This document shows, one piece after another, positions 1 to 29,035 of a DNA stretch of 29,035 nt (within the stretch, counting starts at the first letter, position 1; every line of letters starts with the position of its first letter). The translations under genes were made by a program, and so were the position numbers. The notes below the pieces were generated by a model that worked only from the letters and a program-made list of their open reading frames with translations, was not told the DNA's origin and made no database searches. Source of the DNA: a virus (taxonomy: Duplodnaviria > Heunggongvirae > Uroviricota > Caudoviricetes); the IMG/VR virus record IMGVR_UViG_2850778813_000007. One strand, written 5' to 3'.

Positions 1-333
1 TCAGGGTGCGGAAGGACTAAAGATAAACGTTTTCTTCACGCCTTTACACGGCCTGTCCTTCTCAAATCGCCATTTTGCCATCGCCTTTACAACCTGCTCA
101 TCAAACAGATGGTGCGGCTCTGAACGAATAAACTCAATTCGGGTGACAGTACCATCAGCACCAATATCAAACCTCACATCAACCCGTCCCTTTATATAAT
201 TTGCCGCTGCATAGGCCGGATATTGTGGTAATGCCTTAACCAACTGTCGGGGCATATCTGTTTTATGTTGCGTACAGCCCATAACCAGAGAAGACAACAA
301 AATAATTAACGGAAGGTTTCTTTTCATTTTCAT
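1..333 (-). CDS. Lipoprotein with TonB C-terminal-like domain (prophage accessory gene downstream of lysis cassette)
   Basis: ORF track 1..342; basic N-terminus then hydrophobic stretch ending in lipobox-like LVMGC; remainder matches the TonB_C pattern (PQYP..A.....G.V.V.F.I..DG.V..I.....LFD..V.KAM.KWRF). Start could be GTG 342, ATG 333 or ATG 327. Confidence 0.5.
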   Translation of the reverse strand: MKMKRNLPLIILLSSLVMGCTQHKTDMPRQLVKALPQYPAYAAANYIKGRVDVRFDIGADGTVTRIEFIRSEPHHLFDEQVVKAMAKWRFEKDRPCKGVKKTFIFSPSAP

Positions 334-671
334 TCCCGGCACAGATAAGAATAAGTCTTATTCTAACAATGCCACCCTGTCGGTCATCAATCCTCTGCTT
401 AATGGCAACGACAATTATCCGACTTAAATCACAAATCAGACACATGACATAACAGAGCTTGCGAGGTAACACATCGTCCGGTTTCTTCCACCATCGCACC
501 GGACCAGCGACCATGAGGGGACAACGCCGCGCTCCGTTAACGCGGTAAACCCCGGTGTGTATCGTTTTTGATTATCCCCGCACACTCGCGCAGAGGAGTC
601 TCCCGGTCGGGCTGCGGTCTCTGTTAATGCGGGGATACGGCGACAATACCGCGCATGGTTAATAAGGTCGC

Positions 672-896
672 TCAACACACTGGCTGTAATGCAGCGGATA
701 CCATGCGGCATTTAGCGGCATTCATCGTACACTCAACGGTTAGCTCTTCATTCGTGGCATTCACCTGAAAGGTCCGGGAGTGTAATTGCGTACATTTACC
801 ACTGAACGAACCTTCAACAAGAACACGACCACGCTGCAAAATACGGAACGGAATTGTTCCCTGAAAAGGCTTTACGGTTACCAGTAATTTCTTCAT
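672..896 (-). CDS. Hypothetical 74-aa protein immediately downstream of Rz
   Basis: ORF track 672..914; internal ATG at 896 preceded by GGAG with 5-nt spacer; begins 24 nt after the Rz stop. No recognisable family. Confidence 0.35.
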   Translation of the reverse strand: MKKLLVTVKPFQGTIPFRILQRGRVLVEGSFSGKCTQLHSRTFQVNATNEELTVECTMNAAKCRMVSAALQPVC

Positions 897-919
897 GCAT
901 TCTCCGGATAACAAAAATA

Positions 920-1393
920 CTAGTTAATACACTGAGTGCGGATATATTCCTGCGCCCCTTCCAGTTGCTTCTGCATTGTCATCAACCGCTCTCTGAGGGT
1001 GAAATAATCCCGTTCAGCGGTGTCTGCCAGTCGGGGGCCGGTTGCATTATCCATTCCGGAGGTGCCGGTGGCTTCACGCACGGTACCGGAGCAGGTGGCG
1101 TTGATCCGCAGGCGCTTACGACCAGCGGCAACATCAGCACGCAGAGTTTCATTTTCAGCTCTCGCATCGGCTAATTCCCTTGAGTATCTGGCATCAAGCG
1201 CAGCAACATCACGCTGGCGCTGCTGCATGTCAGTAATGGTTGCGTTTGCCAGCTCCAGCTCTCTGGCTTTTTTATCGCGCTGCGCTTTGTAGGTGATGGC
1301 GTTATCACGGTAATGGTCTGTTGCCAGCCACAGCGCACCACAGACCACCAGCAGAATAACGGTAAACGCGGAAAGCATTCGGTTTATGTTCAC
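920..1393 (-). CDS. Rz: Rz i-spanin (lysis, inner-membrane spanin subunit)
   Basis: 157-aa ORF with N-terminal TM segment and long helical periplasmic part; strong resemblance to lambda Rz (..[64 protein letters not shown]). Start is GTG at 1393 or ATG at 1378. Confidence 0.8.
982..1152 (-). CDS. Rz1: Rz1 o-spanin lipoprotein, embedded in the +1 frame of Rz
   Basis: ORF track 982..1167 nested entirely inside Rz; [15 protein letters not shown] signal with lipobox followed by a proline-rich segment, the classic Rz1 architecture. Confidence 0.7.
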
Positions 1394-1521
1394 CCCAGCA
1401 GCCCCGACGAAGACAACATCATCCAGGCCATGGAAAGAAAAAGAGCAACCAGCATTAGTGAAAATGAAATGCCGACAATTACACAGAGGATCTTCGCCAG
1501 CGTTATGAGTTTGTCTGACAT
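1390..1521 (-). CDS. 43-aa hydrophobic single-TM peptide, translationally coupled to Rz
   Basis: ATG at 1521 preceded by AGGGAGG with 7-nt spacer; product [43 protein letters not shown]; its TGA stop overlaps the Rz GTG start (GTGA). Confidence 0.35.
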
Positions 1522-1874: not shown

Positions 1875-2408
1875 TTATCTGTCGATGTCCCAGCACGCCA
1901 GCGCACTTTCCTGGTCTCGCCGGGATACCTGACCGTAGCAATTATTTGAGCGGATACGGCAGTCTCTGCCACCGTCCTTAATCCACCAGCGAATCGCTTC
2001 GCATGCTCCCCTGCGGTCACCAGCATTAATCCGTCTGTAAAACGTCGACGGGAAACACTTACCGGGGCCAATGTTATAGGGACAAAATGACGCGATACCC
2101 GCTTTCTGGGGTTCGGTCAGCGGCACTTTAATATTGCGCTCCACCCATGCCAGCGCCTTATCACGCTCAATGGCGTTGACCTGGTCGCATTTTTCCTTCG
2201 ACAACTTCATGCCCGGGACGACAGGTTTACTATCCACCAGGATGGCACCGCGGCAGATGGTCCAGATACCCGCGCCATCACGGTATGCCGTGGTGTGGTT
2301 ACCTTCCTTTTCATCCAGAAACTGGTCGAGGATTTCAGGCGCAGGCGCACCTGCGGCAATCAGCGCCAGAACGGCAGCCGACAGGCCGTATTTGATTTTG
2401 GTGTTCAT
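1875..2408 (-). CDS. R: Phage endolysin, T4-lysozyme-like fold with N-terminal SAR-type hydrophobic segment
   Basis: 177-aa ORF; N-terminal YGLSAAVLALIAAGAPAPE hydrophobic segment followed by a lysozyme-like catalytic region (EGNHTTAYRDGAGIWTICRGA); sits between holin and Rz. Confidence 0.85.
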   Translation of the reverse strand: MNTKIKYGLSAAVLALIAAGAPAPEILDQFLDEKEGNHTTAYRDGAGIWTICRGAILVDSKPVVPGMKLSKEKCDQVNAIERDKALAWVERNIKVPLTEPQKAGIASFCPYNIGPGKCFPSTFYRRINAGDRRGACEAIRWWIKDGGRDCRIRSNNCYGQVSRRDQESALACWDIDR

Positions 2409-2807: not shown

Positions 2808-3023
2808 TTACTCTCCCCGCGCCGCCTTACGACGGTCCTCTCTGATTTTGAAATACAGGTTAGTCAGATATGTCAGCAGCCCAAACAACAGACTCCCCAG
2901 CACGCCTATTGCCGCCCACTGAGACGGGGAAACCCTGTCCAGCAACTGCAGGAACCAGTAGCCCGTTCCCACCGCTGACGTGGTGTATGACACACCTGTT
3001 GTGATTTTTTCCATCTGGTACAT
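2808..3023 (-). CDS. S: Class II holin (S21-like pinholin) with dual-start motif
   Basis: ORF track 2808..3077; ATG at 3023 preceded by GGGAG; product [10 protein letters not shown]...[50 protein letters not shown] closely resembles S21/EssD; Met1/Met4 give the holin/antiholin pair. Confidence 0.8.
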
Positions 3024-3673: not shown

Positions 3674-5554
3674 TTATGCGGCTGCTCCAGCTTTGTTTGC
3701 TTTAACTTCCACCGTATCAATAAGTACAGGGTAGGTTTCTGCACTACCTGTAATATCCGTAATGACAAACCTGTTGAGTCCATTAGCAGTATTGGCCCAT
3801 TTCACCAGGTCAAACGCCTGTCCATCCACACCATCAAGCACCGGAGTAACATTAATGCTGTTACTGCCCTTAAATTTAAATGCAAGCGTATGCCAGTCAT
3901 GGTCGAATGCGCCAAACGTGCCAAGTTCTTTTTGTTGATTAACTGTATGATGGTATGCAATATTAATACTGGCTTTATCTGTCTGGACAAAGAAAGAACT
4001 CAGATGGCCTTCACCACCCTCACCCGGCCATTCCGCTATTCGCCAGTACAAACCAAAGGCATACTTGTTTCTGGTTGTCTCAAGATTGACGTTTTCGGGG
4101 ATTTTAAACCGGACAGCAATTTCCCCGCCTTTTTCCAGTAAAAGTTTTGCCTTGTCTGCAGCAATATCACAGTACATTGACCAGGATTTCGCGCTGTTAT
4201 TTTTCTCAATTCGCAGAGCTTTATTGCCGCTGTCATCAACCAGTGTGCGTCTGCCATACATACCGTCCCAGCCATAAGGTTTCAGCTGATTGTCTGTAGC
4301 TTTTTTGGCATCGTAAAAAATTACAGACTCTGAGGTGGTAACCGGCCTGTCTGGAACAACCACCCCGGCAGTACCATTAACAAACGCAGAAGACTTACCC
4401 GCGCAGCTCAGAATCGCCGTTGCCAGACGGTCGGAAATAATCCCACGGCGAGCCCATGAACTGAAATGGCTCGCCCTGTCCTGTGACGTCCAGGTGGCTG
4501 AGCTGTCACGCCATTTCGAACCGTAATAACCGATACCCGGAATGTCCGGGTCTTCTTCCGGTTTGTTCGTCGGCACATTCACCCCGTTCTCATCGGTCAT
4601 GAACGGTACGAAATGGATATTCTTTTCCGTTTTATTTTTATAGCTGCCGTACACCGTCTGGTACGTGGATTCGTTCTTCTGCTTCCAGAAATACGTCGTG
4701 TCCCCGCATATCCAGGGAACACCGCCAGCAGAGCCACCGACGCACTGGCCTGCCATATCCGCCAGGTCTGCACGGAATTTATCAACCAGCGCACCAAACT
4801 GTGCGGCATGATTTGCCGGCGTACCGCCAAAATCAAATTCCCCCTGCATCCACACCACGGCAAACAGCACATTTTTCGGGTTCTTCTCCAGTGCCGCTTT
4901 TGTTCGACCGATAAGGTCCTTATACAGCGGCTTGTCCACACCCCAGCGGGTTGAATTCTCCGAGGCACCACTCGCGTCACTGTATGTGCCATCAGCTCCG
5001 GTGGTGAACGCTGAACCACCACGACAGCACGGAACCAGCAGAATGCCCGCATTCGCCGGTATAAACGGCAGCAGTTTTTTGGCGATATGCAGCCCCTGCC
5101 CCACGGTTCCGTACTGCCCCTTTGACAGGTCCGCTTTCGGATGGTTAAGACGGCTCATGTCCTGCACATCATGCAGACAATGGTCCGCCGGAATGATGTC
5201 GTTATATTTGCATGCTGCACCGCCCGGTGTCACCGTACTGCGACGCGCCAGTTGCTTAATACGCGGGTCCGGACGGTCATATGTCCCCGGCAGCGGAAGG
5301 CCTTCACCATACGACATGCCGTTTGACTGCCCTGCCAGAACCACAACAAAGTAATACTCCGGGTTGCTGGTGGCGCTGATTACTGCACCTTCTGCTGCAA
5401 TCGCCTGCATCAGAGTATAAGGGGTTATGGCCACCGGACTACCAAACGGCTGCCAGCCCTCTTTCAGTTTATGTGTCAGCTTTTCCGCAAGATCTGACGG
5501 CGACGCCGCCCTGACAACATCATAGTGTTTAAATGCCATGGTTCTTTCCACCAT
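3674..5554 (-). CDS. nanS-p: NanS-p-type prophage 9-O-acetyl-sialate esterase (DUF1737 N-terminus plus SASA/SGNH esterase domain)
   Basis: 626-aa ORF; VVVLAGQSNGMSYG motif typical of sialate O-acetylesterases; this family sits immediately downstream of stxAB in Stx phages. Start is ATG 5554 or ATG 5539. Confidence 0.8.
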   Translation of the reverse strand: MVERTMAFKHYDVVRAASPSDLAEKLTHKLKEGWQPFGSPVAITPYTLMQAIAAEGAVISATSNPEYYFVVVLAGQSNGMSYGEGLPLPGTYDRPDPRIKQLARRSTVTPGGAACKYNDIIPADHCLHDVQDMSRLNHPKADLSKGQYGTVGQGLHIAKKLLPFIPANAGILLVPCCRGGSAFTTGADGTYSDASGASENSTRWGVDKPLYKDLIGRTKAALEKNPKNVLFAVVWMQGEFDFGGTPANHAAQFGALVDKFRADLADMAGQCVGGSAGGVPWICGDTTYFWKQKNESTYQTVYGSYKNKTEKNIHFVPFMTDENGVNVPTNKPEEDPDIPGIGYYGSKWRDSSATWTSQDRASHFSSWARRGIISDRLATAILSCAGKSSAFVNGTAGVVVPDRPVTTSESVIFYDAKKATDNQLKPYGWDGMYGRRTLVDDSGNKALRIEKNNSAKSWSMYCDIAADKAKLLLEKGGEIAVRFKIPENVNLETTRNKYAFGLYWRIAEWPGEGGEGHLSSFFVQTDKASINIAYHHTVNQQKELGTFGAFDHDWHTLAFKFKGSNSINVTPVLDGVDGQAFDLVKWANTANGLNRFVITDITGSAETYPVLIDTVEVKANKAGAAA

Positions 5555-6154: not shown

Positions 6155-6189
6155 CAAAATCAATATAAACAGCCCCTCCGGAGAGGGGC
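6155..6189 (-). terminator. Terminator-like hairpin just beyond the 3' end of the AT-rich ORF
   Basis: GCCCCTC-CGGA-GAGGGGC 7-bp stem at 6172..6189; on the minus strand it is followed by a U-rich tract (CUGUUUAUAUUGAUUUU). Confidence 0.4.
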
Positions 6190-6386
6190 TGGAGAGTGGC
6201 GCTATGTGCCATTGCATGGTGCCGGGTGCCTCCCGGTGAATTCAGTACCAGCACCTGAATCTGCGATTATCCCATATACCTACTCGCTGATTGCCCCTCC
6301 GCACAGGGGGATTCACCATGCCAGTTTCTTTTAACAAACTCCCCGCAAACCAGACAACAGTCAACCGCCTGAATTGTGAGACATTT

Positions 6387-6425: not shown

Positions 6426-6502
6426 TGGCGCGTTCTACTGTATTCGAACCAGTGACCGATTGCTTAGAAGGCAATTGCTCTGTCCGGCTGAGCTAACAAC
6501 GC
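6426..6502 (-). tRNA. argO: tRNA-Arg (anticodon UCU), argO-like
   Basis: Manual fold: acceptor GCGTTGT, D-arm GCTC/GAGC, anticodon loop CTTCTAA, T-loop TTCGAAT, 3' GCCA encoded. One acceptor mismatch and a non-canonical 53-61 pair in my fold. Confidence 0.65.
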
Positions 6503-6518
6503 AGGATACAGATAATGA

Positions 6519-6592
6519 ACCGCCTTCGGGGACCCGAACTCCGCGCAACCAGCTTCGAAGGCTGGCGCTCTTTCCTGATGAGCTAATGGCGG
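6519..6592 (-). tRNA. argN: tRNA-Arg (anticodon UCG), argN-like; possibly imperfect
   Basis: Manual fold: D-arm TAGCTC..GAGC, anticodon stem CCAGC/GCTGG with loop CTTCGAA; acceptor and T stems each carry one mismatch and position 1 is C. Confidence 0.5.
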
Positions 6593-6602
6593 TATGTGAT
6601 AG

Positions 6603-6675
6603 TGGCCCTTGCTGGATTTGAACCAGCGACCTGGCGATTATGAGTCGCTCGCTCTCACCACTGAGCTAAAGGGCC
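6603..6675 (-). tRNA. ileZ: tRNA-Ile2 (anticodon CAU, lysidine type), ileZ/ileX-like
   Basis: Sequence GGCCCTTTAGCTCAGTGGTGAGAGCGAGCGACTCATAATCGCCAGGTCGCTGGTTCAAATCCAGCAAGGGCCA folds canonically and closely matches E. coli ileX; CCA not encoded. Confidence 0.8.
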
Positions 6676-6724: not shown

Positions 6725-7774
6725 TCAAACGATTAAATCCTGAACTTCCCTGACTGTCTGCTCAAAACGTCCTGTCTCCAGTTCAACGCCAATCGCACGA
6801 CGCCCGAGCGCCAGTGCCGCTTTTACCGTTGAACCCGACCCCATGAAAAAATCCGCAACCAGATCACCAGGACGACTACTTGCGCTGATTATCTGCTGCA
6901 GCATTTCTGCCGGTTTTTCGCACGGATGTTTCCCGGGATAGAACTGCACCGGTTTATGTGTCCACACATCCGTGTACGGCACCTGCGCCGTCACACCAAA
7001 ATACCGCCGCAGATGTTTATATTCACTCTGCAGCTCCGCATACTGTCGGTTCAGTGAAGTATACGTATCCACCAGCTGGTGGTGGGGCTTTTCCAGTTCC
7101 CCCCGCTGATGCTTCTCTTCTGCCACCCTGGCAAACAGTGCCTGTAATTTCAGATAATCGCTTTCGTTCGGCAACTGCCACTGACTGGCACTGAACCAGT
7201 GCGACACCATGTTTTTCTTTCCTGTGGCATCTGCAATCTGTTTTGCCGTTATCCCCAGGGCCGCGCATGCATCACGAAAGTAAGAAATCAGCGGGGCCAT
7301 CACATGCTGTTTCAGTGCCCTGCCCTTCGCCTCATACCCGGCATCTTTCGGACGATACGGCCCCTGATAATGTTCCGCGAACAGAATGCGCTCTGTGGCG
7401 GGGAAATACGCCCGCAGGCTTTCCTTGTTGCACCCGTTCCAGCGTCCGGAAGGCTTCGCCCAGATAATATGGTTCAGCACACTGAAGCGTTCACGCATCA
7501 TGATTTCGATATCAGATGCCAGGCGATGACCACAGAACAGGTAAAGACTTCCGGCAGGTTTCAGCACCCGCCAGAACTGCGCCAGACACTGGTCCAGCCA
7601 CTTCAGGTAATCATCGTCGCCCTTCCACTGGTTATCCCAGCCCTCAGGCTTCACTTTAAAGTACGGCGGGTCCGTGACTATCAGGTCAACAGAATTTTCG
7701 GGTAACGACCGGATAAATTCCAGGCAGTCGGCGTTGATTAACTCACAACTGGATATTTTTACAGTATTAAGCAT
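6725..7774 (-). CDS. DNA methyltransferase, N6-adenine/N4-cytosine family (beta class: DPPY motif IV before FxGSGS motif I)
   Basis: 349-aa ORF; LIVTDPPY near the N-terminus and DFFMGSGST near the C-terminus; no adjacent restriction endonuclease candidate. Confidence 0.8.
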   Translation of the reverse strand: MLNTVKISSCELINADCLEFIRSLPENSVDLIVTDPPYFKVKPEGWDNQWKGDDDYLKWLDQCLAQFWRVLKPAGSLYLFCGHRLASDIEIMMRERFSVLNHIIWAKPSGRWNGCNKESLRAYFPATERILFAEHYQGPYRPKDAGYEAKGRALKQHVMAPLISYFRDACAALGITAKQIADATGKKNMVSHWFSASQWQLPNESDYLKLQALFARVAEEKHQRGELEKPHHQLVDTYTSLNRQYAELQSEYKHLRRYFGVTAQVPYTDVWTHKPVQFYPGKHPCEKPAEMLQQIISASSRPGDLVADFFMGSGSTVKAALALGRRAIGVELETGRFEQTVREVQDLIV

Positions 7775-8348: not shown

Positions 8349-9170
8349 CTATCGCGTTACCCTCTTTAACTGCCGCTCCGCCCATGCCTCTTCAATGTCA
8401 AACCGAACCACCAACGTATCGTAAAAGCGTTTCACTGATTTTTTCCACGTATCAAGCGTGATAGCACTCGTCACTTTGCATATGGCATTAAATGCCTCCG
8501 TTGATGGTAGTCTTTCACAGCCACGACCACCACAACGCTGGCAGTCTCTGATAACAGGCATACCACGTTTTACCGACTCTTCACGATGAATGGCGACACC
8601 ACGCCCACGGCAATCCTTACAGGCGGTGGAAACCTCACCCTTTCCGCCACACTCCGGACAGGCAACTTTTACCACCTCCCTGACTTTTTTCCATTCTTCC
8701 CAGTAAGACGGATACACGCCTTTTGTGCACTTTGCCCACACTGGTGGCTTACCATCCGGATACTGGATCTTGTTTGTAAAAACCTCGCTTTCAATAAATT
8801 TTTTTCCGTGACAGCAGGGGCACTGTTTTTTGCTCGCCGCGCTACGGGCATAATCTTCAAACGCATACGAAGCCATAATGCGCATCACTACCGGTTTTAT
8901 TTCTGCCGGAAGTTTTCTCAACGCCGCTACACGATCGCACCGACTGAGTGCATAATCTGCCAGTAATTCTGTTGCCCGCGCCCTGTCATTCATACTGATG
9001 CCCATTTTCCCCAGGAACGCAGAAAACCCCATCTCAGCCCGATTCTGTGTCATGCCCTGCGCGGCCATCACATCAGTGATACTCAGCGCATCTTTTGACG
9101 TTGAGGCCGATGCATCGGTCAGGCTAGGGGATTTTGGGGAGTAGTATTTCGGTAAATCTTCCAGTTTCAT
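8349..9170 (-). CDS. Putative late-gene antiterminator Q-like protein with four CxxCxGxG zinc-ribbon repeats
   Basis: 273-aa ORF directly downstream of rusA and upstream of terminators and late genes (the Q position); CPCCHGKK, CPECGGKG, CKDCRGRG, CQRCGGRG repeats. Family assignment is by position and length, not confirmed. Confidence 0.5.
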   Translation of the reverse strand: MKLEDLPKYYSPKSPSLTDASASTSKDALSITDVMAAQGMTQNRAEMGFSAFLGKMGISMNDRARATELLADYALSRCDRVAALRKLPAEIKPVVMRIMASYAFEDYARSAASKKQCPCCHGKKFIESEVFTNKIQYPDGKPPVWAKCTKGVYPSYWEEWKKVREVVKVACPECGGKGEVSTACKDCRGRGVAIHREESVKRGMPVIRDCQRCGGRGCERLPSTEAFNAICKVTSAITLDTWKKSVKRFYDTLVVRFDIEEAWAERQLKRVTR

Positions 9171-9541
9171 TTTTTGACCTGCTCTTCATGCATTATGGGG
9201 TAAATCTTCACCCCCATACGTCCACCAGATACTGGCTGACCACGAACGATATTGATTTCATCAAACTGCTCATCGTCCATTAACACTCCCGCATGCGTCA
9301 GCGCATCCAGCGGTGCTTTCAGGATATTGTCCAGGTCGCGACGACGCTTATCCGGTGGCTCTGCAATCACCTTTATCGCCAGCCTTCCGGACAGGCTTAA
9401 TTTCAGCCGCTGCTGGCGAACAATAAGCGCCACAGCCCGGCGATAACGCTTTCCCTCCTCCGAGATAAAATATGTGCTGCCACGGCGTCGCCAGTAAGTG
9501 TTCACCGTCGGCGGGTAAGGTAAAACCAAATCTATGAGCAT
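9167..9541 (-). CDS. rusA: Holliday junction resolvase RusA
   Basis: 124-aa ORF; LPYPPTVNTYW...DKRRRDLDNILKAPLDALTHAGVLMDDEQ matches the RusA family signature; 4-nt overlap with the upstream Q-like gene. Confidence 0.85.
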   Translation of the reverse strand: MLIDLVLPYPPTVNTYWRRRGSTYFISEEGKRYRRAVALIVRQQRLKLSLSGRLAIKVIAEPPDKRRRDLDNILKAPLDALTHAGVLMDDEQFDEINIVRGQPVSGGRMGVKIYPIMHEEQVKK

Positions 9542-10852: not shown

Positions 10853-12250
10853 AATAAACGCTCCGTTTTACTGCCCGACATGCGGTTATTGCTGTATCTG
10901 CGCGGATTGCCCGGCGTCATGGGTGTGGAAAGAACCCGGGCACTCTCCTGGTCCACAGGCAGAAAATGTCCGTTATGAAAACGCCGGTAAATGGTCCCGA
11001 GCGTGCCATTACGCTGTTTCGTGATGTTGATTTCTGCTATGCCTCTGGCCTGAGTTTCCGGGTTGTATACCTCATCCCTGTAAAGCATCAGAATGATGTC
11101 GGCATCCGCCTCGATTTCCCCGGAGTTTTTCAGGTCCGAGTTCATTGGGCGTTTATTGGGTCTGGATTCCACGCCGCGGGAGAGCTGGCTCAGAGCAATC
11201 AGCGGAAAACCGCCGGATTTTGCCAGGCTTTTAAGTCCCTTTGAGATTTCCCCCACCGCAAGGTCGTGACGCCCCGTACTGCGGGTTTTAATCAGGCCGA
11301 GGTAATCGACCACCACCAGCGCCGTTTCCGGGTGTTTCATCCGGTGGTGCTTCGTGGTTGCACATATCTCATCAATGGGTCAGGTTTGCCTGGTCCACCA
11401 TCCAGATATTACGCCCCGTCATTCGTCCCACGCCCTGCGAGAAACGCGCCCAGTCTTCATCTTCAAAACGGGCAACAGACTTAAGACGGGATACCGGCAT
11501 TCCACCGGCAGCAGACACCATACGTTCACCAATCTGGATGTTCGCCATCTCCATGGTGAACAGAAGCACGCCATGCCCCTGCTCAGTCACCTTGTCGATG
11601 ATGTCCAGCGCAAGTTCGGTTTTCCCCATCGAAGGACGGGCGGCAATGAATACCAGGTCTCCGGGCTCCATACCGCCCGTTTTTGCGTCCAGTTCATCAA
11701 TACCGGTCATCAGCGCCCTGGATTTCTCCAGTCCCTGATTGCGGCATTCAACACGGTCGACCACTTCCAGAAGGACATCATCAATGTGAACCGGCTGAAT
11801 GACGCCCTTTCCGGTCGACAGTGAGGCCATCATGTTCTGCACATCCTTCAGGGCATCCTCGGCTGCTTCACAGGTATACGCATCACGTAAATTCTGTAAT
11901 GCTTCAGTCAGTGTTTTTTCTGCATCGCGCAGTGCGGCATTGCGCCGCAACGCTGCGACATAGTGCTCCAGTGAAGACTTCACCCAGGTTTTGCGTCCGG
12001 TGTCGGTAATCACCGGGGCAAGTTCCGGCATCTCATTGCACAGCAGTACGGGGTCAATGACGCCGGATATGCGAGCCTGTCTGCAAATCCCCGCGTAAAT
12101 ATCCCGGTACTGACGCACAAAAAATACATCCGCCGGAAGTGTGGCCAGAATATCCATCACTTCCGGATCGGCCCCACGCAGAAAAAACGCACCGATGACA
12201 GCGCCTTCCAGGTCATCGTTACGCCATGCCGGGGTGTTCTGGCTGGTCAT
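10849..12250 (-). pseudogene. DnaB-like replicative helicase, split into two ORFs by a frameshift
   Basis: N-part 11372..12250 and C-part 10849..11340 (Walker-B-like [44 protein letters not shown]) lie in different frames; removing one G from the GGG run at 11377..11379 restores ..[34 protein letters not shown]. Confidence 0.7.
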
Positions 12251-13134
12251 GCGGCAACACCTCCGATACGAGAACGGTAGCTGGGCCAGTTAAACGACAA
12301 CCAGTTGCGCCCGCCATCGGTGATCCTGTCGGCAATCCGGGGACTGATGAACGCCCACAATTCTTCCGGTGAAAGATTGCTGATCAAGATAGTTGGCAAA
12401 ATACCCTCATACCGGGCATTGATAATTTCCTGCAAAATGGCCATTTCAGCCGCACTGCCAAACTGAACGCCGACTTCGTCGACAATCAGCAAATCCAGTG
12501 ACGCATAATGCTCAATGACGTCATCCGCTGTTTTTTCACTGTCATTCCGCCAGCAGTTTTTCACAGCCCGGGTAAGGCGCATCACGTCGGTGATCTCCAC
12601 ACTGGCCAGATAGTTACGGATGATGTGTTTTGCCATTGATACCGCCAGATGATTTTTCCCGGTACCGCAACTGCCGGTCATAACAAGACTGGTACCGTTC
12701 TCCAGCATATCTGGCCAGTTCTCCGCATAGCGGCGACAGGCCGCAAGATTTCTGGCTGCGTCAGGATTAACCTCCAGATAATTATCAAACTCGCAGTCCC
12801 GAAAACGCAGAGCAATTCCGGCGTTATCAGTCAGTTCTTCCGCCTTGAGGGACGACAGTTCCATGGTCAAATAACTGGCCTCAGCGATCAAGCAGTCAGG
12901 GCAGCATGAAATTTTTTCTCTGTCCTCGCCATTACGATCGCTCCACACCAGTATATGCGTACGATATTTACCGTGTTTTTCGCAATATCCGCGACCTTCA
13001 CGCATCAGGCAGGAACGATAAGGCCATGGCTTTTCGCCCTTCTGAGCAAATGCAATCTCTGCCCGTAACTCATCCATTCGCGCCTGTAGTCTTGTTTGTT
13101 TCTCACGTTGGTCAATCGTCATCATCGCTGTCAC
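12247..13134 (-). CDS. DnaC/IstB-like AAA+ helicase loader (phage replication protein)
   Basis: 295-aa ORF; Walker A GSCGTGKNHLA, Walker B LLIVDEVG; Cys-rich N-terminus; overlaps the helicase gene start. Confidence 0.75.
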   Translation of the reverse strand: MTAMMTIDQREKQTRLQARMDELRAEIAFAQKGEKPWPYRSCLMREGRGYCEKHGKYRTHILVWSDRNGEDREKISCCPDCLIAEASYLTMELSSLKAEELTDNAGIALRFRDCEFDNYLEVNPDAARNLAACRRYAENWPDMLENGTSLVMTGSCGTGKNHLAVSMAKHIIRNYLASVEITDVMRLTRAVKNCWRNDSEKTADDVIEHYASLDLLIVDEVGVQFGSAAEMAILQEIINARYEGILPTILISNLSPEELWAFISPRIADRITDGGRNWLSFNWPSYRSRIGGVAA

Positions 13135-14633: not shown

Positions 14634-14824
14634 GGACGCACCTCCACCGTAGTTACGTATTTAACCGGGCTACCTTTCATTGAGATGGTTTCACACATCT
14701 CTGCCGCTTTCAGTTCCGCTGTTTTTCTGGATTTATAGCGACGGTGCCAGACAGATACATCCGTGCGAACTGATACATCGTTTCTGTATTCCGTAGTGGA
14801 GATGATGATTTCGTAACTAATCAT
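14630..14824 (-). CDS. Hypothetical 64-aa protein
   Basis: ORF track; 4-nt overlap with the Rha-like gene stop and the next gene start. Confidence 0.35.
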   Translation of the reverse strand: MISYEIIISTTEYRNDVSVRTDVSVWHRRYKSRKTAELKAAEMCETISMKGSPVKYVTTVEVRP

Positions 14825-15372
14825 GGGCGAACCTCCTTGTCAGAACCATTCAGCCTGGAATCAACAAGTGCAGCGCCAAAAACAGCATCACCAACACGGT
14901 CGTACAGTTTGCTAGCCAGCGGAGATTCAACGGCCTTAAGCATTGGATAAAGCTGGCTTGTCCAGATTTGATGGATTTCACGCAAATGCAGGTATACGCC
15001 TCTGGCGTTTCGTGCGACAGCTGACATATCAACCGCGTCAGCACCAGATAAATTCTTCTCCATCTGGTTAAAGGCGTTGATGTATGCCTCTTTGAACCGG
15101 GCTGCACGTTTGCCAGTAAAGCCCATAGCAAGGAACGCGAAGCCATCGCGGGTGATTTGATAGCAAGGTAGTTTGCGGCCTGTGCAATCGGTGTAATCAC
15201 TGGGCTGAAAATTCAGCTCAGTGAATTCAACAGAGCACTCAAGCGTCTGGATTTTTTGAATAACGTTTTTGTGCTGCTTGCAGAAATATTCGGCAACGGC
15301 CAAAGAAGAGGTAACAGCCTTCCCATGGATAACATCAATTTTAGGGTGAGTTTGGGTAGGGGTGGTTGCCAT
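14821..15372 (-). CDS. Phage regulatory protein, Rha/antirepressor-type N-terminal domain
   Basis: ORF track 14821..15669; ATG at 15372 preceded by GAGGA with 7-nt spacer; product MATTPTQTHPKIDVIHGKAVTSSLAVAEYFCKQHKNVIQKI...YQITRDGFAFLAMGFTGKRAARFKEAYINAFNQME. The in-frame upstream extension is treated as non-coding. Confidence 0.6.
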   Translation of the reverse strand: MATTPTQTHPKIDVIHGKAVTSSLAVAEYFCKQHKNVIQKIQTLECSVEFTELNFQPSDYTDCTGRKLPCYQITRDGFAFLAMGFTGKRAARFKEAYINAFNQMEKNLSGADAVDMSAVARNARGVYLHLREIHQIWTSQLYPMLKAVESPLASKLYDRVGDAVFGAALVDSRLNGSDKEVRP

Positions 15373-15535
15373 AGTGACATCCTCATGTGCGAATTTTGAA
15401 AACTCACCACATGGGACGCCAATCACAGAGGTGGTGAGACGTACAGGGTTGGCGTAACCGGTCGCACATGACCCCGGCGCATCTTTCGATGCCCCTGCAC
15501 GCCCCACCATAATTTGGATGTGAGGAAACGTGCGC

Positions 15536-15558
15536 AAAAAAACCGCTGAAGCGCGGTT
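15536..15558 (-). terminator. Rho-independent terminator downstream of the 235-aa regulator gene
   Basis: Minus strand AACCGC-GCTTCA-GCGGTT followed by TTTTT. Confidence 0.4.
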
Positions 15559-15777
15559 ATGCGCATGTGCGAATTTCAGGACGCCAATCCCGGCACCCGC
15601 TTTATAAGGTGCGGAGACAGTGTAACGTCCCGAAATTGCAGAATCAATATTTGGTCTTGAAATGATCATATAGCTGCTGATATCTTTAGAACTGTTCTTG
15701 GATGTTTCGGAGCCGTTTTATGCGAAACAGCTCCCCGTTATTGATGTTGAGTGAGCCGGGTTACTCCCGGCTTTTTT

Positions 15778-16709: not shown

Positions 16710-16820
16710 TCTTTAGTCTCACACCAGATACTTTGTTATTCAACGATGTTAACCGCGAGATTCCAAAGTATCAAGAAATTCTGTTACTTTCGTATCAACA
16801 GCCATGAGAGGAGAAGAAAA
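16710..16820. promoter_or_regulatory. Divergent promoter/operator region between the Cro-like gene and cI
   Basis: 111-bp AT-rich intergenic region between divergent starts; repeated TATCAA and GTTA motifs; operators not resolved by eye. Confidence 0.4.
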
Positions 16821-17477
16821 ATGAAGTCTTTAGGTGAACGTCTCATCAACGCACGGCAAAAAGCTGGGTTAACACAAGATGCGTTGGCTAAAAAAGCTGG
16901 GATCACCAGAGTTGCAATCAGTAAAGCCGAGCAAGGCCTTACAAAAAGTTTCAACGGTGACACCCTTTTTAAAGTTGCAGCTGCACTGCGGTGTTCACCG
17001 CAGTGGCTTCAGAACGGAGATGAAAAAGATAAGCATTGGGAAAATAATGTTAAGAGCTGCCCACAGAGAGACACAGCACACTCTTACCCTGTAATTAACT
17101 GGGTTCAGGCAGGATTATTCGCAACTTCTGGTGATGACTACAACATGTATGATCAGGATAATTGGAGGCATTCTGTAAAATACGCTGGTGAGAGGGGGTT
17201 CTGGCTGGAAGTGCACGGAGACTCAATGACTTCGCCCGTAGGAATAACATTTCCTGAAGGAATGTCGATCCTTGTCAACCCAGATAAAGAAGTTTTTTCA
17301 GGGTGTTACGTCATCGCCAGAAAAAAATCCACCAATGAAGCAACATTCAAAAAATATATTTCTGACATGGGAAAGGCGTTTCTAAAGCCCCTTAATCCAC
17401 AATATCCAATCATAGAAATGGACAATGATTGCGAAATAGTAGGTGTTGTGGTTGATGCCAGGTGGGATATTTTCTGA
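16821..17477 (+). CDS. cI: CI-type prophage repressor (HTH_XRE N-terminal domain plus S24/LexA-like autopeptidase domain)
   Basis: ORF track 16746..17477; ATG at 16821 preceded by GAGAGGAG; QKAGLTQDALAKKAGITRVAIS HTH; LEVHGDSM serine motif and a downstream Lys. Confidence 0.8.
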   Translation: MKSLGERLINARQKAGLTQDALAKKAGITRVAISKAEQGLTKSFNGDTLFKVAAALRCSPQWLQNGDEKDKHWENNVKSCPQRDTAHSYPVINWVQAGLFATSGDDYNMYDQDNWRHSVKYAGERGFWLEVHGDSMTSPVGITFPEGMSILVNPDKEVFSGCYVIARKKSTNEATFKKYISDMGKAFLKPLNPQYPIIEMDNDCEIVGVVVDARWDIF

Positions 17478-18704: not shown

Positions 18705-19610
18705 CTATATTTCCAGACATCTGTTATCACTTAACCCATTACAAGCCCGCTGCCGCAGATATTCCCGTGGCGAGCGATAACCCAGCGCACTATGCGGATG
18801 CCATTCGTTATAATGCTCGAACGCCTCTGCAAGGTTCTTTGCTGCCGTTAACCCGTCTGGTTTGGGCATGATACTGATGTAGTCACGCTTTATCGTTTTC
18901 ACGAAGCTCTCTGCTATTCCGTTACTCTCCGGACTCCGCACCGCCGTGTTCTTCGGTTCAAGTCCCAACATCCGGGCGAACTGGCGTGTTTCATTAGCCC
19001 GGTAGCATGAACCATTATCCGTCAGCCACTCCACTGGAGACGACGGAAGATCGTTGCCGAAGCGGCGTTCCACCGCTCCCAGCATGACGTCCTGTACTGT
19101 TTCACTGTTGAAGCCGCCGGTAGTCACCGCCCAGTGCAGTGCCTCACGATCACAGCAGTCCAGCGCGAACGTGACACGCAGTCTCTCTCCGTTATCACAG
19201 CAGAACTCGAACCCGTCAGAGCACCATCGCTGATTGCTTTCTTTCACGGCCACTCTGCCTGTATGTGCCCGTTTCGATGGTGGTACAGCAGGTTTTCGCT
19301 CAAGCAACAGGGCATTCTGGCGCATGATCCGGTAAACACGTTTGGCATTGATCGCAGGCATACCATCAAGTTCTGCCTGTCTGCGAAGCAGCGCCCATAC
19401 CCGACGATAACCATACGTGGGCAGCTCTCCGATAACATGGTGTATACGGAGAAGCACATCCGTATCATCAGTGTGACGACTGCGGCGGCCATCCATCCAG
19501 TCATCGGTTCGTCTGAGAATGACGTGCAACTGCGCACGCGACACCCGGAGACAACGGCTGACTAAGCTTACTCCCCATCCCCGGGTAATAAGGGCGCGTG
19601 CGCTATCCAC
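18705..19610 (-). CDS. insD: IS2 transposase OrfB (InsD)
   Basis: 301-aa ORF matching IS2 InsD (DDE integrase-type domain). Confidence 0.9.
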
Positions 19611-27801: not shown

Positions 27802-27907
27802 GACAGATGCTGGCCAACGTGGGATATTTAACGCGGGTTAACATCGTTGTCAGAGCCGCATGGGTGAGCTGTTGCTACACCCCGGTATTTCCACCACGGA
27901 GGCCAGC

Positions 27908-29035
27908 ATGAACAACAATAACACATTGTACGTCGGGTTAGATGTTCACAAAGAATCGATTACTGTCGCTTATGCTATCAATTCAGAACCTGTTGAACTG
28001 ATGGGTAAAATTGGCACATCACCTACTGATATTCAGAATCTTTGTAAACGTCTCAGGTCAAAGTCATCGCAGGTCAGTATCGTTTATGAAGCGGGGCCCT
28101 GTGGTTATGGACTTTATCGTCGGCTGGTGAAATCCGGTTTTGACTGCATGGTCTGCGCCCCCTCACTTATCCCGAAAAAACCGGGGGAGCGGGTTAAAAC
28201 CGATCGCCGTGATGCCATCAGACTTGTGCGTTCACTGCGTGCAGGAGATCTTTCTGCTGTCTACGTACCCGGCATTGAAGATGAGGCATTCCGGGATTTG
28301 GCCCGGGCATGGGCATCTGCCCGCGATGATTTACGGCATGCAAGGCAACGTCTGAAATCGTTTCTTCTGGTTCATGGGGTCCATTATGTCGGGCGAGCAG
28401 ATTGGGGCCCTGCACACCGACGCTGGCTCAGCAAATACTCATTCGAAAGTCCCTGGCGACAATTAGCTTTTGACGAACACCGTCGTACAATAGAAGACCG
28501 GCAGGCACAATGTGAACGGCTGGAATCCGCCCTGAAGGAGGCCGTTACCGAATGGAGGCTGTATCCGGTAGTAGAGGCGCTGCAAGCCATGCGAGGGATT
28601 CAGTTTATTACTGCGGTTGGATTAATTTCTGAACTGGGTGATCTGACCCGTTTTGAACATCCACGACAACTGATGTCATGGTTTGGTATCACGCCATCAG
28701 AATATTCATCGGGTGGAAGCAGACATCAGGGCAGCATTACCAAAGCCGGAAACAGCTATGCCAGAAAGCTATTGGTCGAGGCAGCGTGGAGTTACCGTCA
28801 TCCGGCACGCATCAGTCCGGCAATACAAAAAAGGCAGGAAAATTTACCCCGCCCCGTCATTGACAGAGCATGGGATGCTCAACTCAGGCTTTGTAAGAGG
28901 TATCGAAAACTTCAGGCCAAAGGAAAGAATGTCAATATTACAATTGTTGCTGTTGCACGTGAGCTGGCGGGTTTTATCTGGGATATGGGCCGAATAGCAA
29001 TGTCTGTCGCACAACAACCACAATGTCACAAATAA
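27908..29035 (+). CDS. IS110-family transposase
   Basis: ORF track 27860..29035; ATG at 27908 preceded by GGAGG with 5-nt spacer; N-terminal LYVGLDVHKESITVAY motif typical of IS110-family transposases; stop codon is the last triplet of the window. Confidence 0.75.
   Translation: MNNNNTLYVGLDVHKESITVAYAINSEPVELMGKIGTSPTDIQNLCKRLRSKSSQVSIVYEAGPCGYGLYRRLVKSGFDCMVCAPSLIPKKPGERVKTDRRDAIRLVRSLRAGDLSAVYVPGIEDEAFRDLARAWASARDDLRHARQRLKSFLLVHGVHYVGRADWGPAHRRWLSKYSFESPWRQLAFDEHRRTIEDRQAQCERLESALKEAVTEWRLYPVVEALQAMRGIQFITAVGLISELGDLTRFEHPRQLMSWFGITPSEYSSGGSRHQGSITKAGNSYARKLLVEAAWSYRHPARISPAIQKRQENLPRPVIDRAWDAQLRLCKRYRKLQAKGKNVNITIVAVARELAGFIWDMGRIAMSVAQQPQCHK

Follow-up and report, generated by a model that had tools for sequence, protein, structure and literature searches.

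Can a small lipoprotein encoded by a tailed phage act on the TonB-dependent entry routes of its bacterial host? The question is raised by an open reading frame at one end of a 29,035-nt stretch of viral DNA (Caudoviricetes; IMG/VR record IMGVR_UViG_2850778813_000007), which is called the window in the following and represents a lambdoid prophage of E. coli. A first-pass annotation, made from the letters alone, described the product as a lipoprotein with a TonB C-terminal (TonB_C) domain encoded just beyond the lysis cassette, and suggested that it might interfere with TonB-dependent receptors.

The reading frame is indeed present at 1..342 on the minus strand and ends with a TGA stop codon at 3..1. 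Its beginning has to be moved, however, from the GTG at position 342 to the ATG at 327..325, which is almost certainly the true start on comparative grounds: RefSeq gives a 327-nt CDS in a 98%-identical locus, the upstream ATG is changed to ATA in phage 21 while the second ATG is retained, and a GGGA motif lies 6 nt 5' of this second ATG. The upstream in-frame GTG (342-340) and ATG (333-331), both within 328..342 (minus strand), are probably unused as start codons. The resulting CDS (1..327, minus strand) encodes a protein of 108 aa that begins with MKRNLPL. The gene is already annotated in public databases as 'TonB family protein', 'TonB C-terminal domain protein' or 'TonB fragment', and the exact protein sequence is found on at least 1000 public contigs under the first of these names.

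The N-terminus consists of a 17-residue signal peptide, with a basic n-region and a hydrophobic h-region, that ends in a lipobox (MKRNLPLIILLSSLVMG followed by C; 274..327, minus strand). The LVMGC lipobox reported by the first-pass annotation fits the PROSITE pattern PS51257 in a regular-expression search at Cys18 (codon TGT, 276-274), and the same pattern is kept in 14 of 17 family members. Lipoproteins with an Asp at position +2 are retained in the inner membrane. At +2 all family members carry T, S or A, Asp being absent, and relatives with identities as low as 33-52% still have the lipobox together with a residue other than Asp at this position. The window protein would be lipidated at Cys18, and its Thr at +2 and Gln at +3 predict sorting to the outer membrane. 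The tether between Cys18 and the following domain comprises 7 residues, with no Pro-rich stretch, and varies between 6 and 8 in close relatives.

Residues 26-105 (13..252, minus strand) form the TonB C-terminal-domain fold in an AlphaFold2 model, with two short helices, beta1, beta2, a helix and beta3 in this order and the three strands forming a sheet against the helices, and can be aligned to residues 153-230 of E. coli TonB with 38% identity over 78 positions and zero gaps. The TonB_C motif spelled out in the first-pass annotation is present far above chance, as judged from the Pfam family TonB_C (PF03544; E 9.1e-15, 55.3 bits against a cutoff of 24.6), from TIGR01352 (7e-15, 55.1 bits against a cutoff of 27.1) and from the sequences of solved TonB C-terminal domains in the PDB (about 1e-15). 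Structure prediction led to the same fold as the profiles. The core of the model has a pLDDT of about 90, and the top Foldseek matches are 2gsk_B and 2grx_C (target-normalised TM 0.88, rmsd 1.4-1.8 A, probability 1.00), that is, TonB from the BtuB and FhuA complexes, on both of which the model superposes. The top 16 fold matches in the PDB are TonB C-terminal domains or the homologues FusB and HasB, followed by weak matches to TolA C-terminal domains. Beyond TonB_C and TonB_2, Pfam gave nothing at E<=1, neither the Bor family nor peptidoglycan-binding families (OmpA_C, LysM), the BFVD fold search returned zero matches at E<=0.001, and no Llp or Cor structure was among the PDB Foldseek or BFVD matches. 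The view that the protein resembles neither Bor nor Cor is borne out by these searches. A PADLOC search gave no significant match (best E 0.038, to an oligonucleotide-cyclase model).

The residues that define the family are largely those of TonB itself. In an alignment of 17 members, the 10 invariant and 8 near-invariant columns match the E. coli TonB residue with the exception of the near-invariant S69, which corresponds to Ala196. Columns common to the family and TonB include P153, P161, Y163, P164, A167, G174, V176, D181 and G186 as well as P198, F202, V206, W213, E216, P220 and F230 (TonB numbering). The PxYP motif is kept, and the positions of TonB F180, F202, W213, Y215 and F230 are still aromatic. 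One exchange counts against the decoy role considered below: R166 of TonB, a FhuA contact, is replaced by Tyr in the whole close family. The position of TonB Q160, which is variable within the family, is occupied by Leu in the window allele, and a Q160L exchange in TonB is described in PMC11658791 as a suppressor of TonB-box mutations. The same source cites the pairing of beta3 with the TonB box (Pawelek 2006), and in the model of the phage protein the beta3 strand is formed by residues 94-103. The match to the NCBIfam TonB equivalog (PRK10819) reaches at best 73.6 bits against a cutoff of 315 bits and covers only positions 157-240 of the 249-position profile. An energy-transducing TonB is distinguished by an uncleaved N-terminal transmembrane anchor for ExbB/ExbD and a Pro-rich spacer, and the phage protein has neither.

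The gene does lie just beyond the lysis cassette, as the first-pass annotation had stated. Upstream of it, and likewise on the minus strand, are a class II holin gene (2808..3023; PHROG 9876, 2.4e-40; RefSeq 'class II holin'), the endolysin gene (1875..2408; PHROG 7, 6.4e-61) and the genes of the i-spanin Rz (920..1393; PHROG 13, 2.4e-75) and of the o-spanin Rz1 that is embedded in it (982..1167; PHROG 3198, 1.7e-29). A 74-aa reading frame between Rz and the gene (672..896, minus strand) matches only positions 100-172 of the 291-position PHROG 2571, which marks it as a remnant outside the TonB_C unit; phage Lys8385Vzw carries a 552-nt Rha gene in its place. The gene and about 150 nt of upstream sequence belong to a mosaic cassette (1..476) that extends about 177 bp past the window start. 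Its other boundary lies at 476/477, where the best whole-window matches begin. In locus L001 the 653 bp from 11824 to 12476 correspond to an unrelated 465 bp in strain SF-088, with identical flanks on the YlcI side and the Rz side. The cassette behaves as a single exchangeable block within conserved flanks, in the manner of a moron insertion, and is missing from most otherwise identical lysis regions. Among 80 IMG/VR contigs the gene is located between Rz and the terminase genes, with Rz upstream in 73 and YlcI downstream in 75, and the same Rz-terminase position is occupied in phage 21, Lys8385Vzw and one Klebsiella phage. No cor gene or other clue to the receptor is annotated in the tail regions of Lys8385Vzw and phage 21, and an Rfam search of window positions 1-1500 gave zero matches.

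Within the cassette, a promoter-like site (360..387, minus strand) precedes the gene. It is composed of a -35 element ATGACC (387-382), a 16-nt spacer and an extended -10 element TGtTAGAAT (368-360), and shares 9 of 12 consensus positions plus the TG. Taken alone this site carries little weight because two such sites occur in the region and about 1.5 are expected by chance. The block ATTGTyAGAATAAGAC (370-355), however, is conserved with phage 21 at 15 of 16 positions, whereas its surroundings are only 30-60% identical. A perfect 8-1-8 palindrome (AGAATAAG-a-CTTATTCT; 348..364) overlaps both the -10 element and the probable start of transcription. Being particular to the window allele, it does not represent a conserved operator, since phage 21 has no counterpart of its second half; as a Fur box it was rejected for the same reason and because each half-site, judged by eye, agrees with the Fur consensus at no more than about 4 of 7 positions. 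No Fur box was recognised by eye upstream of the gene, and no intrinsic terminator was found downstream of it in a full-length locus (fold z-score 0.21).

Transcription in a lysogen has been recorded for an orthologue that is 71% identical to the window protein. RNA-seq of the adherent-invasive strain LF82 placed PERCE_65, the 'TonB fragment' of prophage Perceval, 8-fold above the prophage background, with log2 fpkm values of 5-6.6 in all conditions compared to 2.3-4.4 for endolysin, Rz and terminase, and without a response to macrophages or DMEM (log2FC 0.26, not significant) (PMC9928086). Transcription in the lysogen marks the orthologue as a moron and more than a mere late gene. This independent transcription unit is seen in LF82; its putative counterpart in the window is the promoter-like site that is conserved with phage 21.

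Could the protein nevertheless take part in lysis, or be a relic? Its best PHROG, 1267 (1.3e-42), carries the label 'Rz-like spanin', and a lipoprotein encoded beside Rz on the late strand would fit a lysis accessory or spanin-like protein. Such a role is highly improbable: the set of holin, endolysin, Rz and Rz1 is complete in the window, the protein is a globular TonB_C domain that ends in ...FIFSPSAP with no C-terminal transmembrane segment, the LF82 orthologue is transcribed while the lysis genes are silent, and most otherwise identical lysis regions do without the cassette. The PHROG label is most likely a positional mis-annotation. Database names such as 'partial tonB-like membrane protein' and 'TonB fragment', together with many truncated or frameshifted copies, speak for a captured tonB gene of which only a decaying remnant without function is left. 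Frameshifted alleles without beta3 are frequent, with 130 sequences in one such group (P0012), and the gene is therefore not under strong selection in all hosts. Against decay stand a dN/dS of 0.12 between the window and phage 21 alleles, whose products show 71% identity, and of 0.08-0.26 in chromosomal relatives, as well as the intact 108-aa form on so many contigs, the separate transcription unit of the LF82 orthologue and the signal peptide with lipobox, which is found throughout the family and is absent from TonB. The 38% identity to E. coli TonB is also far from the 61-86% shared among enterobacterial TonB C-terminal domains, and a phylogeny separates the family from them as a distinct clade. 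On this comparative evidence the fragment hypothesis appears largely refuted already and is left with a very small probability, and the phylogeny indicates that the gene was not derived recently from host tonB but is part of this distinct clade of stand-alone TonB_C lipoproteins.

This family is widespread. An allele of the gene is present in about 30% of the 5,426 complete E. coli genomes, and phage 21 and Stx1a phages possess it as well. A tblastn search with an alignment of 7 sequences revealed related lipoproteins that are encoded among ordinary chromosomal genes in Klebsiella, Raoultella and Pseudescherichia. A prophage context was considered for them and dismissed, as no lysis or terminase genes are nearby; the homologue of Klebsiella sp. 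I138 adjoins genes for a DUF1440 membrane protein, a glycine-zipper protein and an MlrA-like regulator, and that of Pseudescherichia adjoins SRAP, DUF1272 and DUF326 genes. Since such homologues exist outside phages, the function need not be phage-specific, and the distribution suggests that the ancestral role was probably a host envelope function and not phage exclusion. As a separate observation, the TonB-independent Fe/Mn importer genes sitABCD are present in 7 of 7 phage records with the phage-21-type allele and in 0 of 7 with the window-type allele, and 20 sit-positive phage records have no TonB_C gene.

How might such a protein act in the phage-carrying cell? The likeliest of the answers considered, to which somewhat less than an even chance is assigned, is that it serves as an outer-membrane-tethered decoy for TonB boxes and blunts TonB-dependent phages, colicins and uptake. 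The short tether would hold a complete TonB C-terminal domain at the outer membrane, where the protein would occupy the TonB boxes of TonB-dependent transporters (TBDTs) through TonB-like beta-strand augmentation, possibly along with those of incoming group B colicins, and would compete with the real TonB. Lacking an inner-membrane anchor, a Pro-rich spacer and an ExbD-contacting linker, it could bind without transducing energy. Modest expression in the lysogen would come from its own promoter, plus read-through from the late operon. Irreversible adsorption of T1/phi80-type phages, the action of group B colicins and microcins and the uptake of siderophore-antibiotics would be lowered, and the lysogen would pay with reduced siderophore and B12 uptake.

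Superinfection exclusion by interference with TonB-dependent receptors, as put forward by the first-pass annotation, would be mechanistically reasonable, both because all energy-coupling parts of TonB are absent and because iron import through TBDTs of E. coli is inhibited when the periplasmic domain of TonB is overproduced (Howard 2001, with FecA and FhuA named in its title, as cited in PMC9841981). The same article cites a TonB-box pentapeptide that lowers colicin killing and phi80 infection (Tuckman & Osburne 1992). A phage precedent at the receptor is Llp of T5, a lipoprotein of the inner leaflet of the outer membrane that binds the periplasmic face of FhuA (bioRxiv 10.64898/2026.03.26.714494). 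The literature search revealed no functional study of a phage-encoded TonB_C protein. The LF82 lysogen expresses the orthologue constitutively and no growth defect has been reported. TonB-dependent transporters greatly outnumber TonB, and with these two points in mind a decoy made in modest amounts may leave most of the receptors unblocked. It is rather doubtful, though conceivable, that the protein jams all TonB boxes generically and confers on lysogens a broad tolerance to TonB-dependent phages, group B colicins, microcins and siderophore-antibiotic conjugates such as cefiderocol or albomycin, with SitABCD offsetting the cost in some phages. If it did, exclusion would take place at the energy-coupling step and not at one receptor.

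Two further explanations accept a functional protein and differ from the decoy in what it binds or what it is good for. It could be a host-type envelope protein whose TonB_C domain binds another partner, for example peptidoglycan or some other component of the periplasm or outer membrane, and which acts as an outer-membrane tether or envelope-robustness factor in a Bor-like lysogenic conversion, the phage merely carrying a useful chromosomal gene. The related lipoproteins in ordinary chromosomal neighbourhoods, the clade apart from true TonB C-terminal domains, the constitutive expression of the LF82 orthologue and a genome slot that is the same as that of the bor lipoprotein gene, with both genes in phage 21, are all in line with this idea. 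Binding of peptidoglycan by the TonB C-terminus has been proposed, which was counted in its favour too. It is nonetheless considered fairly unlikely, given that Pfam recognised no OmpA_C or LysM domain and that the residues invariant in the family are TonB's own, including the PxYP region beside the TonB-box site, as would be expected if the ligand were the same as that of TonB. Alternatively, the protein may bind transporters or TonB for a physiological tuning of the lysogen instead of phage or colicin exclusion, for example by limiting iron or haem influx, limiting the entry of toxic siderophore conjugates or altering TonB-dependent signalling. The structural evidence for such tuning is identical to that for the decoy, and the carriage of sitABCD with the phage-21-type allele, with both morons in LF82, would fit a shift to TonB-independent metal uptake. 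The sit link is probably a matter of shared ancestry, however, in view of the 20 sit-positive records without the gene and the lack of sit in the window-type clade, and for the same reasons a functional coupling of the two was downgraded. The unchanged expression of PERCE_65 in macrophages and DMEM and the lack of a Fur box recognisable by eye likewise weigh against tuning, which is judged unlikely.

If the protein is a TonB-box decoy, how does it compare with known systems? With the C-terminal domain of E. coli TonB (about 153-239; PDB 1U07, 2GSK, 2GRX) it has the fold, the signature residues and beta3 in common, and it differs in carrying a cleavable lipoprotein signal in place of the transmembrane anchor, Pro-rich spacer and linker; such a signal would tether it to the opposite, outer membrane and preclude transduction of the proton-motive force. 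Llp of T5 and Cor of lambdoid phages and T1 are likewise small phage lipoproteins of the inner leaflet of the outer membrane (predicted or shown) whose target is a TonB-dependent transporter approached from the periplasm, as is predicted for the TonB_C protein. Their fold is unrelated, they are specific for FhuA and work allosterically on its surface loops, in contrast to a TonB_C decoy, which would suit any TonB box, and cor genes are found near tail genes and not after the lysis genes. The serum-resistance moron Bor/Iss of lambda occupies the same slot between Rz and cos, its product is of the same type, a small lipoprotein of the outer membrane, and it is likewise expressed in the lysogen; in phage 21 and Perceval the two genes are neighbours. 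Bor has no sequence or family similarity to the TonB_C lipoprotein, its gene lies on the opposite strand, and it is strongly induced in DMEM and macrophage conditions, unlike the LF82 orthologue (PMC9928086). The periplasmic TonB domain of Howard (2001) occupies TonB boxes competitively and the peptide of Tuckman & Osburne (1992) competes from the TonB side, according to PMC9841981, but these are a laboratory construct and an added peptide supplied in large excess, in contrast to a natural, lipid-anchored and selected gene product at modest expression. Closest in architecture are the chromosomal 'TonB family proteins' of Klebsiella, Raoultella and Pseudescherichia with the same signal, lipobox, short tether and single TonB_C domain in about 110 aa. 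They are 34-51% identical over the whole protein (tblastn), with 45-52% over the domain for the Klebsiella type, and share the motifs YPxYAxxN, SEPxHLFD and KWRFE. They differ in being located outside prophages.

If the decoy hypothesis is correct, all routes of entry that depend on TonB would be modulated at once by a gene that about one in three sequenced E. coli genomes contain and that is found in Stx1a-converting phages, prophage Perceval of adherent-invasive LF82 and the historical phage 21 as well. T1- and phi80-like phages, which matter in phage therapy and in the contamination of fermentations, would be affected, as would the group B colicins and microcins of gut competition and siderophore-drug conjugates such as cefiderocol. 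Prophage exclusion would follow a new logic, namely competition for the docking site of the transducer rather than the masking of one receptor, and the protein could become a natural tool to probe the coupling between TonB and its transporters. Should the decoy hypothesis be wrong, the gene would still represent a widespread and conserved class of uncharacterised stand-alone TonB_C lipoproteins in Enterobacteriaceae.

The minus-strand ORF at the start of the window, claimed for 1..342 in the first-pass annotation, exists (113 aa if counted from GTG; stop TGA 3..1), and only its start had to be corrected. The true start is placed at the ATG 327..325, with a predicted product of 108 aa (MKRNLPL...), because the RefSeq CDS measures 327 nt in a 98%-identical E. 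coli locus, comparison with phage 21 revealed ATA at the first of two ATGs and conservation of the second, and GGGA lies 6 nt 5' of that second ATG. The N-terminus, MKRNLPLIILLSSLVMG followed by the lipobox residue Cys18 (window 276-274, minus strand) and Thr at +2, fits the PROSITE lipoprotein pattern, which bears out the claimed lipoprotein signal.

The proposed TonB_C pattern is recovered in agreement by Pfam PF03544 (E 9.1e-15, 55.3 bits versus a 24.6 cutoff), TIGR01352 (7e-15), a phmmer search of the PDB, in which the E. coli and Salmonella TonB C-terminal domains matched at about 1e-15, and a 78-residue gapless alignment with E. coli TonB 153-230 (38% identity). An AlphaFold2 model (mean pLDDT 76, about 90 in the domain) has the element order helix, helix, beta1, beta2, helix, beta3. 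Its top structural matches are 2gsk_B (TonB crystallised on BtuB) and 2grx_C (TonB on FhuA), each with a target-normalised TM of 0.88 and with rmsd of 1.8 and 1.4 A, respectively, and TolA domain III matched far more weakly than TonB. The fold was thus found by profile and by structure prediction, and the first-pass observation is confirmed with a corrected start codon.

At every family-invariant column, and at all but one of the near-invariant columns, E. coli TonB carries the same residue (shared columns in TonB numbering: P153, P161, Y163, P164, A167, G174, V176, D181, G186, P198, F202, V206, W213, E216, P220 and F230). Model and alignment show that the predicted fold and the signature residues of the TonB-box-binding domain are kept. 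The position of TonB R166, a FhuA contact, is occupied by Tyr. Beta3, the strand with which the TonB box pairs in the FhuA complex according to PMC11658791, is present. The same paper lists Q160L in TonB as a classical TonB-box suppressor; this allele has Leu there, to which little weight is given because the position varies within the family.

What TonB needs for energy transduction is missing. The protein sequence lacks an uncleaved membrane anchor, a Pro-rich spacer and a linker, and the best TonB equivalog reached 73.6 bits versus a 315-bit cutoff and covered only the C-terminal 84 profile positions. The TonB anchor is replaced by the lipoprotein signal, whose +2 residue is not Asp, and the tether that follows is just 6-8 residues long. 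The +2 residue governs the membrane destination of lipoproteins, and by this established sorting rule the domain is predicted to lie on the periplasmic side of the outer membrane.

The window comprises the early, regulatory and lysis half of a lambdoid E. coli prophage, including Q, a DNA methylase, three tRNAs, an S24 repressor and IS elements. A complete lysis cassette lies upstream of the gene on the same minus strand, in keeping with the claimed position just beyond the lysis genes: holin (2808-3023), a YdfR-family ORF (2459-2803), endolysin (1875-2408), Rz (920-1393) and the embedded Rz1 (982-1167). Between Rz and the TonB_C gene, a 74-aa ORF (672-896, minus strand) matches only positions 100-172 of the 291-position PHROG 2571; it is a remnant of an antirepressor-type gene, because phage Lys8385Vzw has a 552-nt Rha-family gene at the same place. 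The non-coding block at about 477-671, the right-hand flank of the swappable segment, is kept in phage 21 and thousands of E. coli prophages; Rfam gave no match for it, and family support is missing for the mechanically listed ORFs that overlap it (436-711 minus, 555-662 plus, 655-768 plus).

Further upstream, the Q-to-holin stretch is laid out like the late region of Stx phages, with no stx genes in it. It carries the DNA methylase, tRNAs Arg-tct and Arg-tcg, a CAT-anticodon tRNA, the sRNA STnc100 (126.9 bits) and a 626-aa DUF1737+SASA-esterase+DUF6645 protein (listed features at 6161-6350, 6426-6675, 3674-5554, 6725-7774 and 8349-9170, all minus strand). A C4 antisense RNA (75 bits; 15427-15514) and the sRNA isrK (62 bits; 15536-15612) overlap the 5' part of a Rha/Ash-domain antirepressor-like ORF (14821-15669, 5' end 15669), all on the minus strand; this group resembles an RNA-controlled antirepressor module of the P1/P7 or Gifsy type, here within a lambdoid prophage. 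An IS3-family transposase with rve domains (18705-19610, minus strand) lies beside the S24/HTH repressor gene (16746-17477), an IS110-family transposase (27860-29035, plus strand) reaches the window end, and the prophage is probably defective or rearranged.

The position of the TonB_C gene is fixed. In complete loci a convergent YlcI/YnfO gene comes next, then an HNH gene and the terminase genes. Among 80 IMG/VR viral contigs carrying the window-type allele, Rz lies upstream on the same strand in 73 and YlcI lies downstream in 75, and 57 continue into a gene for a small terminase subunit (48 HK97-like, 9 lambda-like). The same position is found in Stx1a-converting phages, Lys8385Vzw, a Klebsiella phage and phage 21, where the gene sits beside bor.

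The top whole-window matches begin at 476/477 and therefore lack the gene. In a pairwise comparison the flanks are conserved, and the 653 bp between them, made up of the gene with about 150 nt on its upstream side and about 177 nt on its downstream side, give way to 465 bp of unrelated sequence. Inside this cassette lies a promoter-like site on the minus strand (-35 ATGACC, 387-382; extended -10 TGtTAGAAT, 368-360), which alone is no better than chance; ATTGTyAGAATAAGAC is kept at 15 of 16 positions in phage 21, and the adjoining sequence is poorly conserved. A perfect 8-1-8 palindrome, AGAATAAG-a-CTTATTCT (348-364), overlaps the putative -10 and transcription start and arises from a 13-nt stretch missing in the phage 21 allele. 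In E. coli LF82, the orthologue in prophage Perceval (LF82_160/PERCE_65, 71% identical) was classed as a moron, 8-fold over prophage background by RNA-seq (PMC9928086). Its log2 fpkm was 5.0-6.6 in every condition, versus 2.3-4.4 for the adjacent endolysin, Rz and terminase (supplementary table, PMC9928086), which shows independent transcription in the lysogen, at least of the sister allele. Judging from position, and with no strong terminator seen between the late genes and the TonB_C gene, transcription from the late promoter would be expected to reach it as well. The window and phage 21 alleles differ with a dN/dS of 0.12 (dS 1.5), so this 'fragment' is under purifying selection.

The gene was detected in 1,618 of 5,426 complete E. 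coli genomes (blastn, query window 1-476), almost always on the chromosome. The window-type allele covered at least 80% of the query in 414 genomes (416 best matches had at least 95% identity), and the phage-21-type allele, with about 74% nucleotide identity, occurred in about 1,200. The exact protein is found on at least 1,000 public contigs, always under generic names. Many public phage-21-type copies (proteins P0012, P0013, P0018, P0019 and P0021; P0012 alone represents 130 member sequences) are frameshifted just past KWRFEK, which swaps beta3 for unrelated sequence; such copies may be natural loss-of-function alleles.

A full HMMER scan of 1.84 billion representatives unveiled many relatives of 107-133 aa (33-51% identity), most with a lipobox and a few with an ordinary signal peptide. 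Homologues in Klebsiella sp. I138, Raoultella and Pseudescherichia lie among ordinary chromosomal genes, and lysis or terminase genes are absent from their surroundings. Because such chromosomal relatives exist, we argue that the ancestral role would have been a host envelope function. A DUF1440 (YagU-like) membrane protein gene adjoins the Klebsiella sp. I138 gene, and another lies about 3 kb upstream of the TonB_C gene in Klebsiella phage ST13-OXA48phi12.4, two cases only (8749-9312 of locus L006; 2277-2903 of locus L004). A crude neighbour-joining tree, built on the domain only, splits stand-alone lipoproteins from enterobacterial TonB C-terminal domains, which are 61-86% identical to each other and only 38% identical to the TonB_C protein; the gene is thus no recent truncation of host tonB. 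It belongs to an older family that has motifs of its own (YPxYAxxN, SEPxHLFD, KWRFE). One 152-aa lipoprotein (P0158), whose linker is long and whose domain shares 61% identity with that of E. coli TonB, looks like a separate, apparently independent lipid-anchored TonB C-terminal domain much nearer to true TonB.

Since the box-binding fold is kept, the energy parts are absent and competitors have precedents, the protein is tentatively viewed as an outer-membrane-tethered decoy for TonB boxes that could dampen TonB-dependent phages, colicins, microcins and uptake, a reading to which we give somewhat less than an even chance. A binder without the ability to pull would, most simply, be a competitor. 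As cited in PMC9841981, overproduction of a periplasmic TonB domain in E. coli inhibited TBDT-mediated iron import (Howard 2001, with FecA and FhuA in its title), and a TonB-box pentapeptide reduced colicin killing and phi80 infection (Tuckman & Osburne 1992). The T5 lipoprotein Llp acts from the inner leaflet of the outer membrane on the periplasmic face of a TonB-dependent transporter (bioRxiv 10.64898/2026.03.26.714494). Counting against a decoy are the host envelope role argued for from the chromosomal relatives and the Tyr in place of TonB R166; moreover, beta3-less frameshift alleles are common, native expression is modest and LF82 has no reported defect. The literature searched yielded no functional paper on a phage-encoded TonB_C protein.

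It is unlikely that the ligand is instead something other than a TonB box, for example peptidoglycan. A physiological role in tuning metal uptake, in place of exclusion, is judged rather improbable; it draws on the Fe/Mn ABC importer sitABCD in phage 21 (OL657228.1, 21967-25416) and in all six other phage-21-type records; however, this link probably reflects shared ancestry. The TonB_C gene is missing from 20 additional E. coli and Salmonella phage records that have sit, and sit is missing from the window-type clade. A dead tonB fragment is very hard to reconcile with the low dN/dS, the transcribed orthologue in LF82 and the conserved lipobox. The PHROG label suggests a lysis accessory, which is scarcely credible given the full holin, endolysin and Rz/Rz1 set and expression of the orthologue apart from lysis genes.

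At the domain level the protein is a bona fide TonB_C member, yet it lacks the defining features of TonB itself, Bor, Cor/Llp and spanins, in keeping with the earlier statement that it is neither Cor-like nor Bor-like. Existing annotations ('TonB C-terminal domain protein' in phage 21, 'partial tonB-like membrane protein' in CP-933N, 'TonB fragment' in Perceval) and its moron status make the gene a known object, whose function would be new. The gene is widespread and present in a classical phage, and the decoy idea extrapolates known inhibition by TonB fragments and is no surprise. If true, it would be a variant of a known theme, prophage outer-membrane lipoproteins that disable TonB-dependent receptors, in which use of the transducer's own docking domain would make the action potentially generic.
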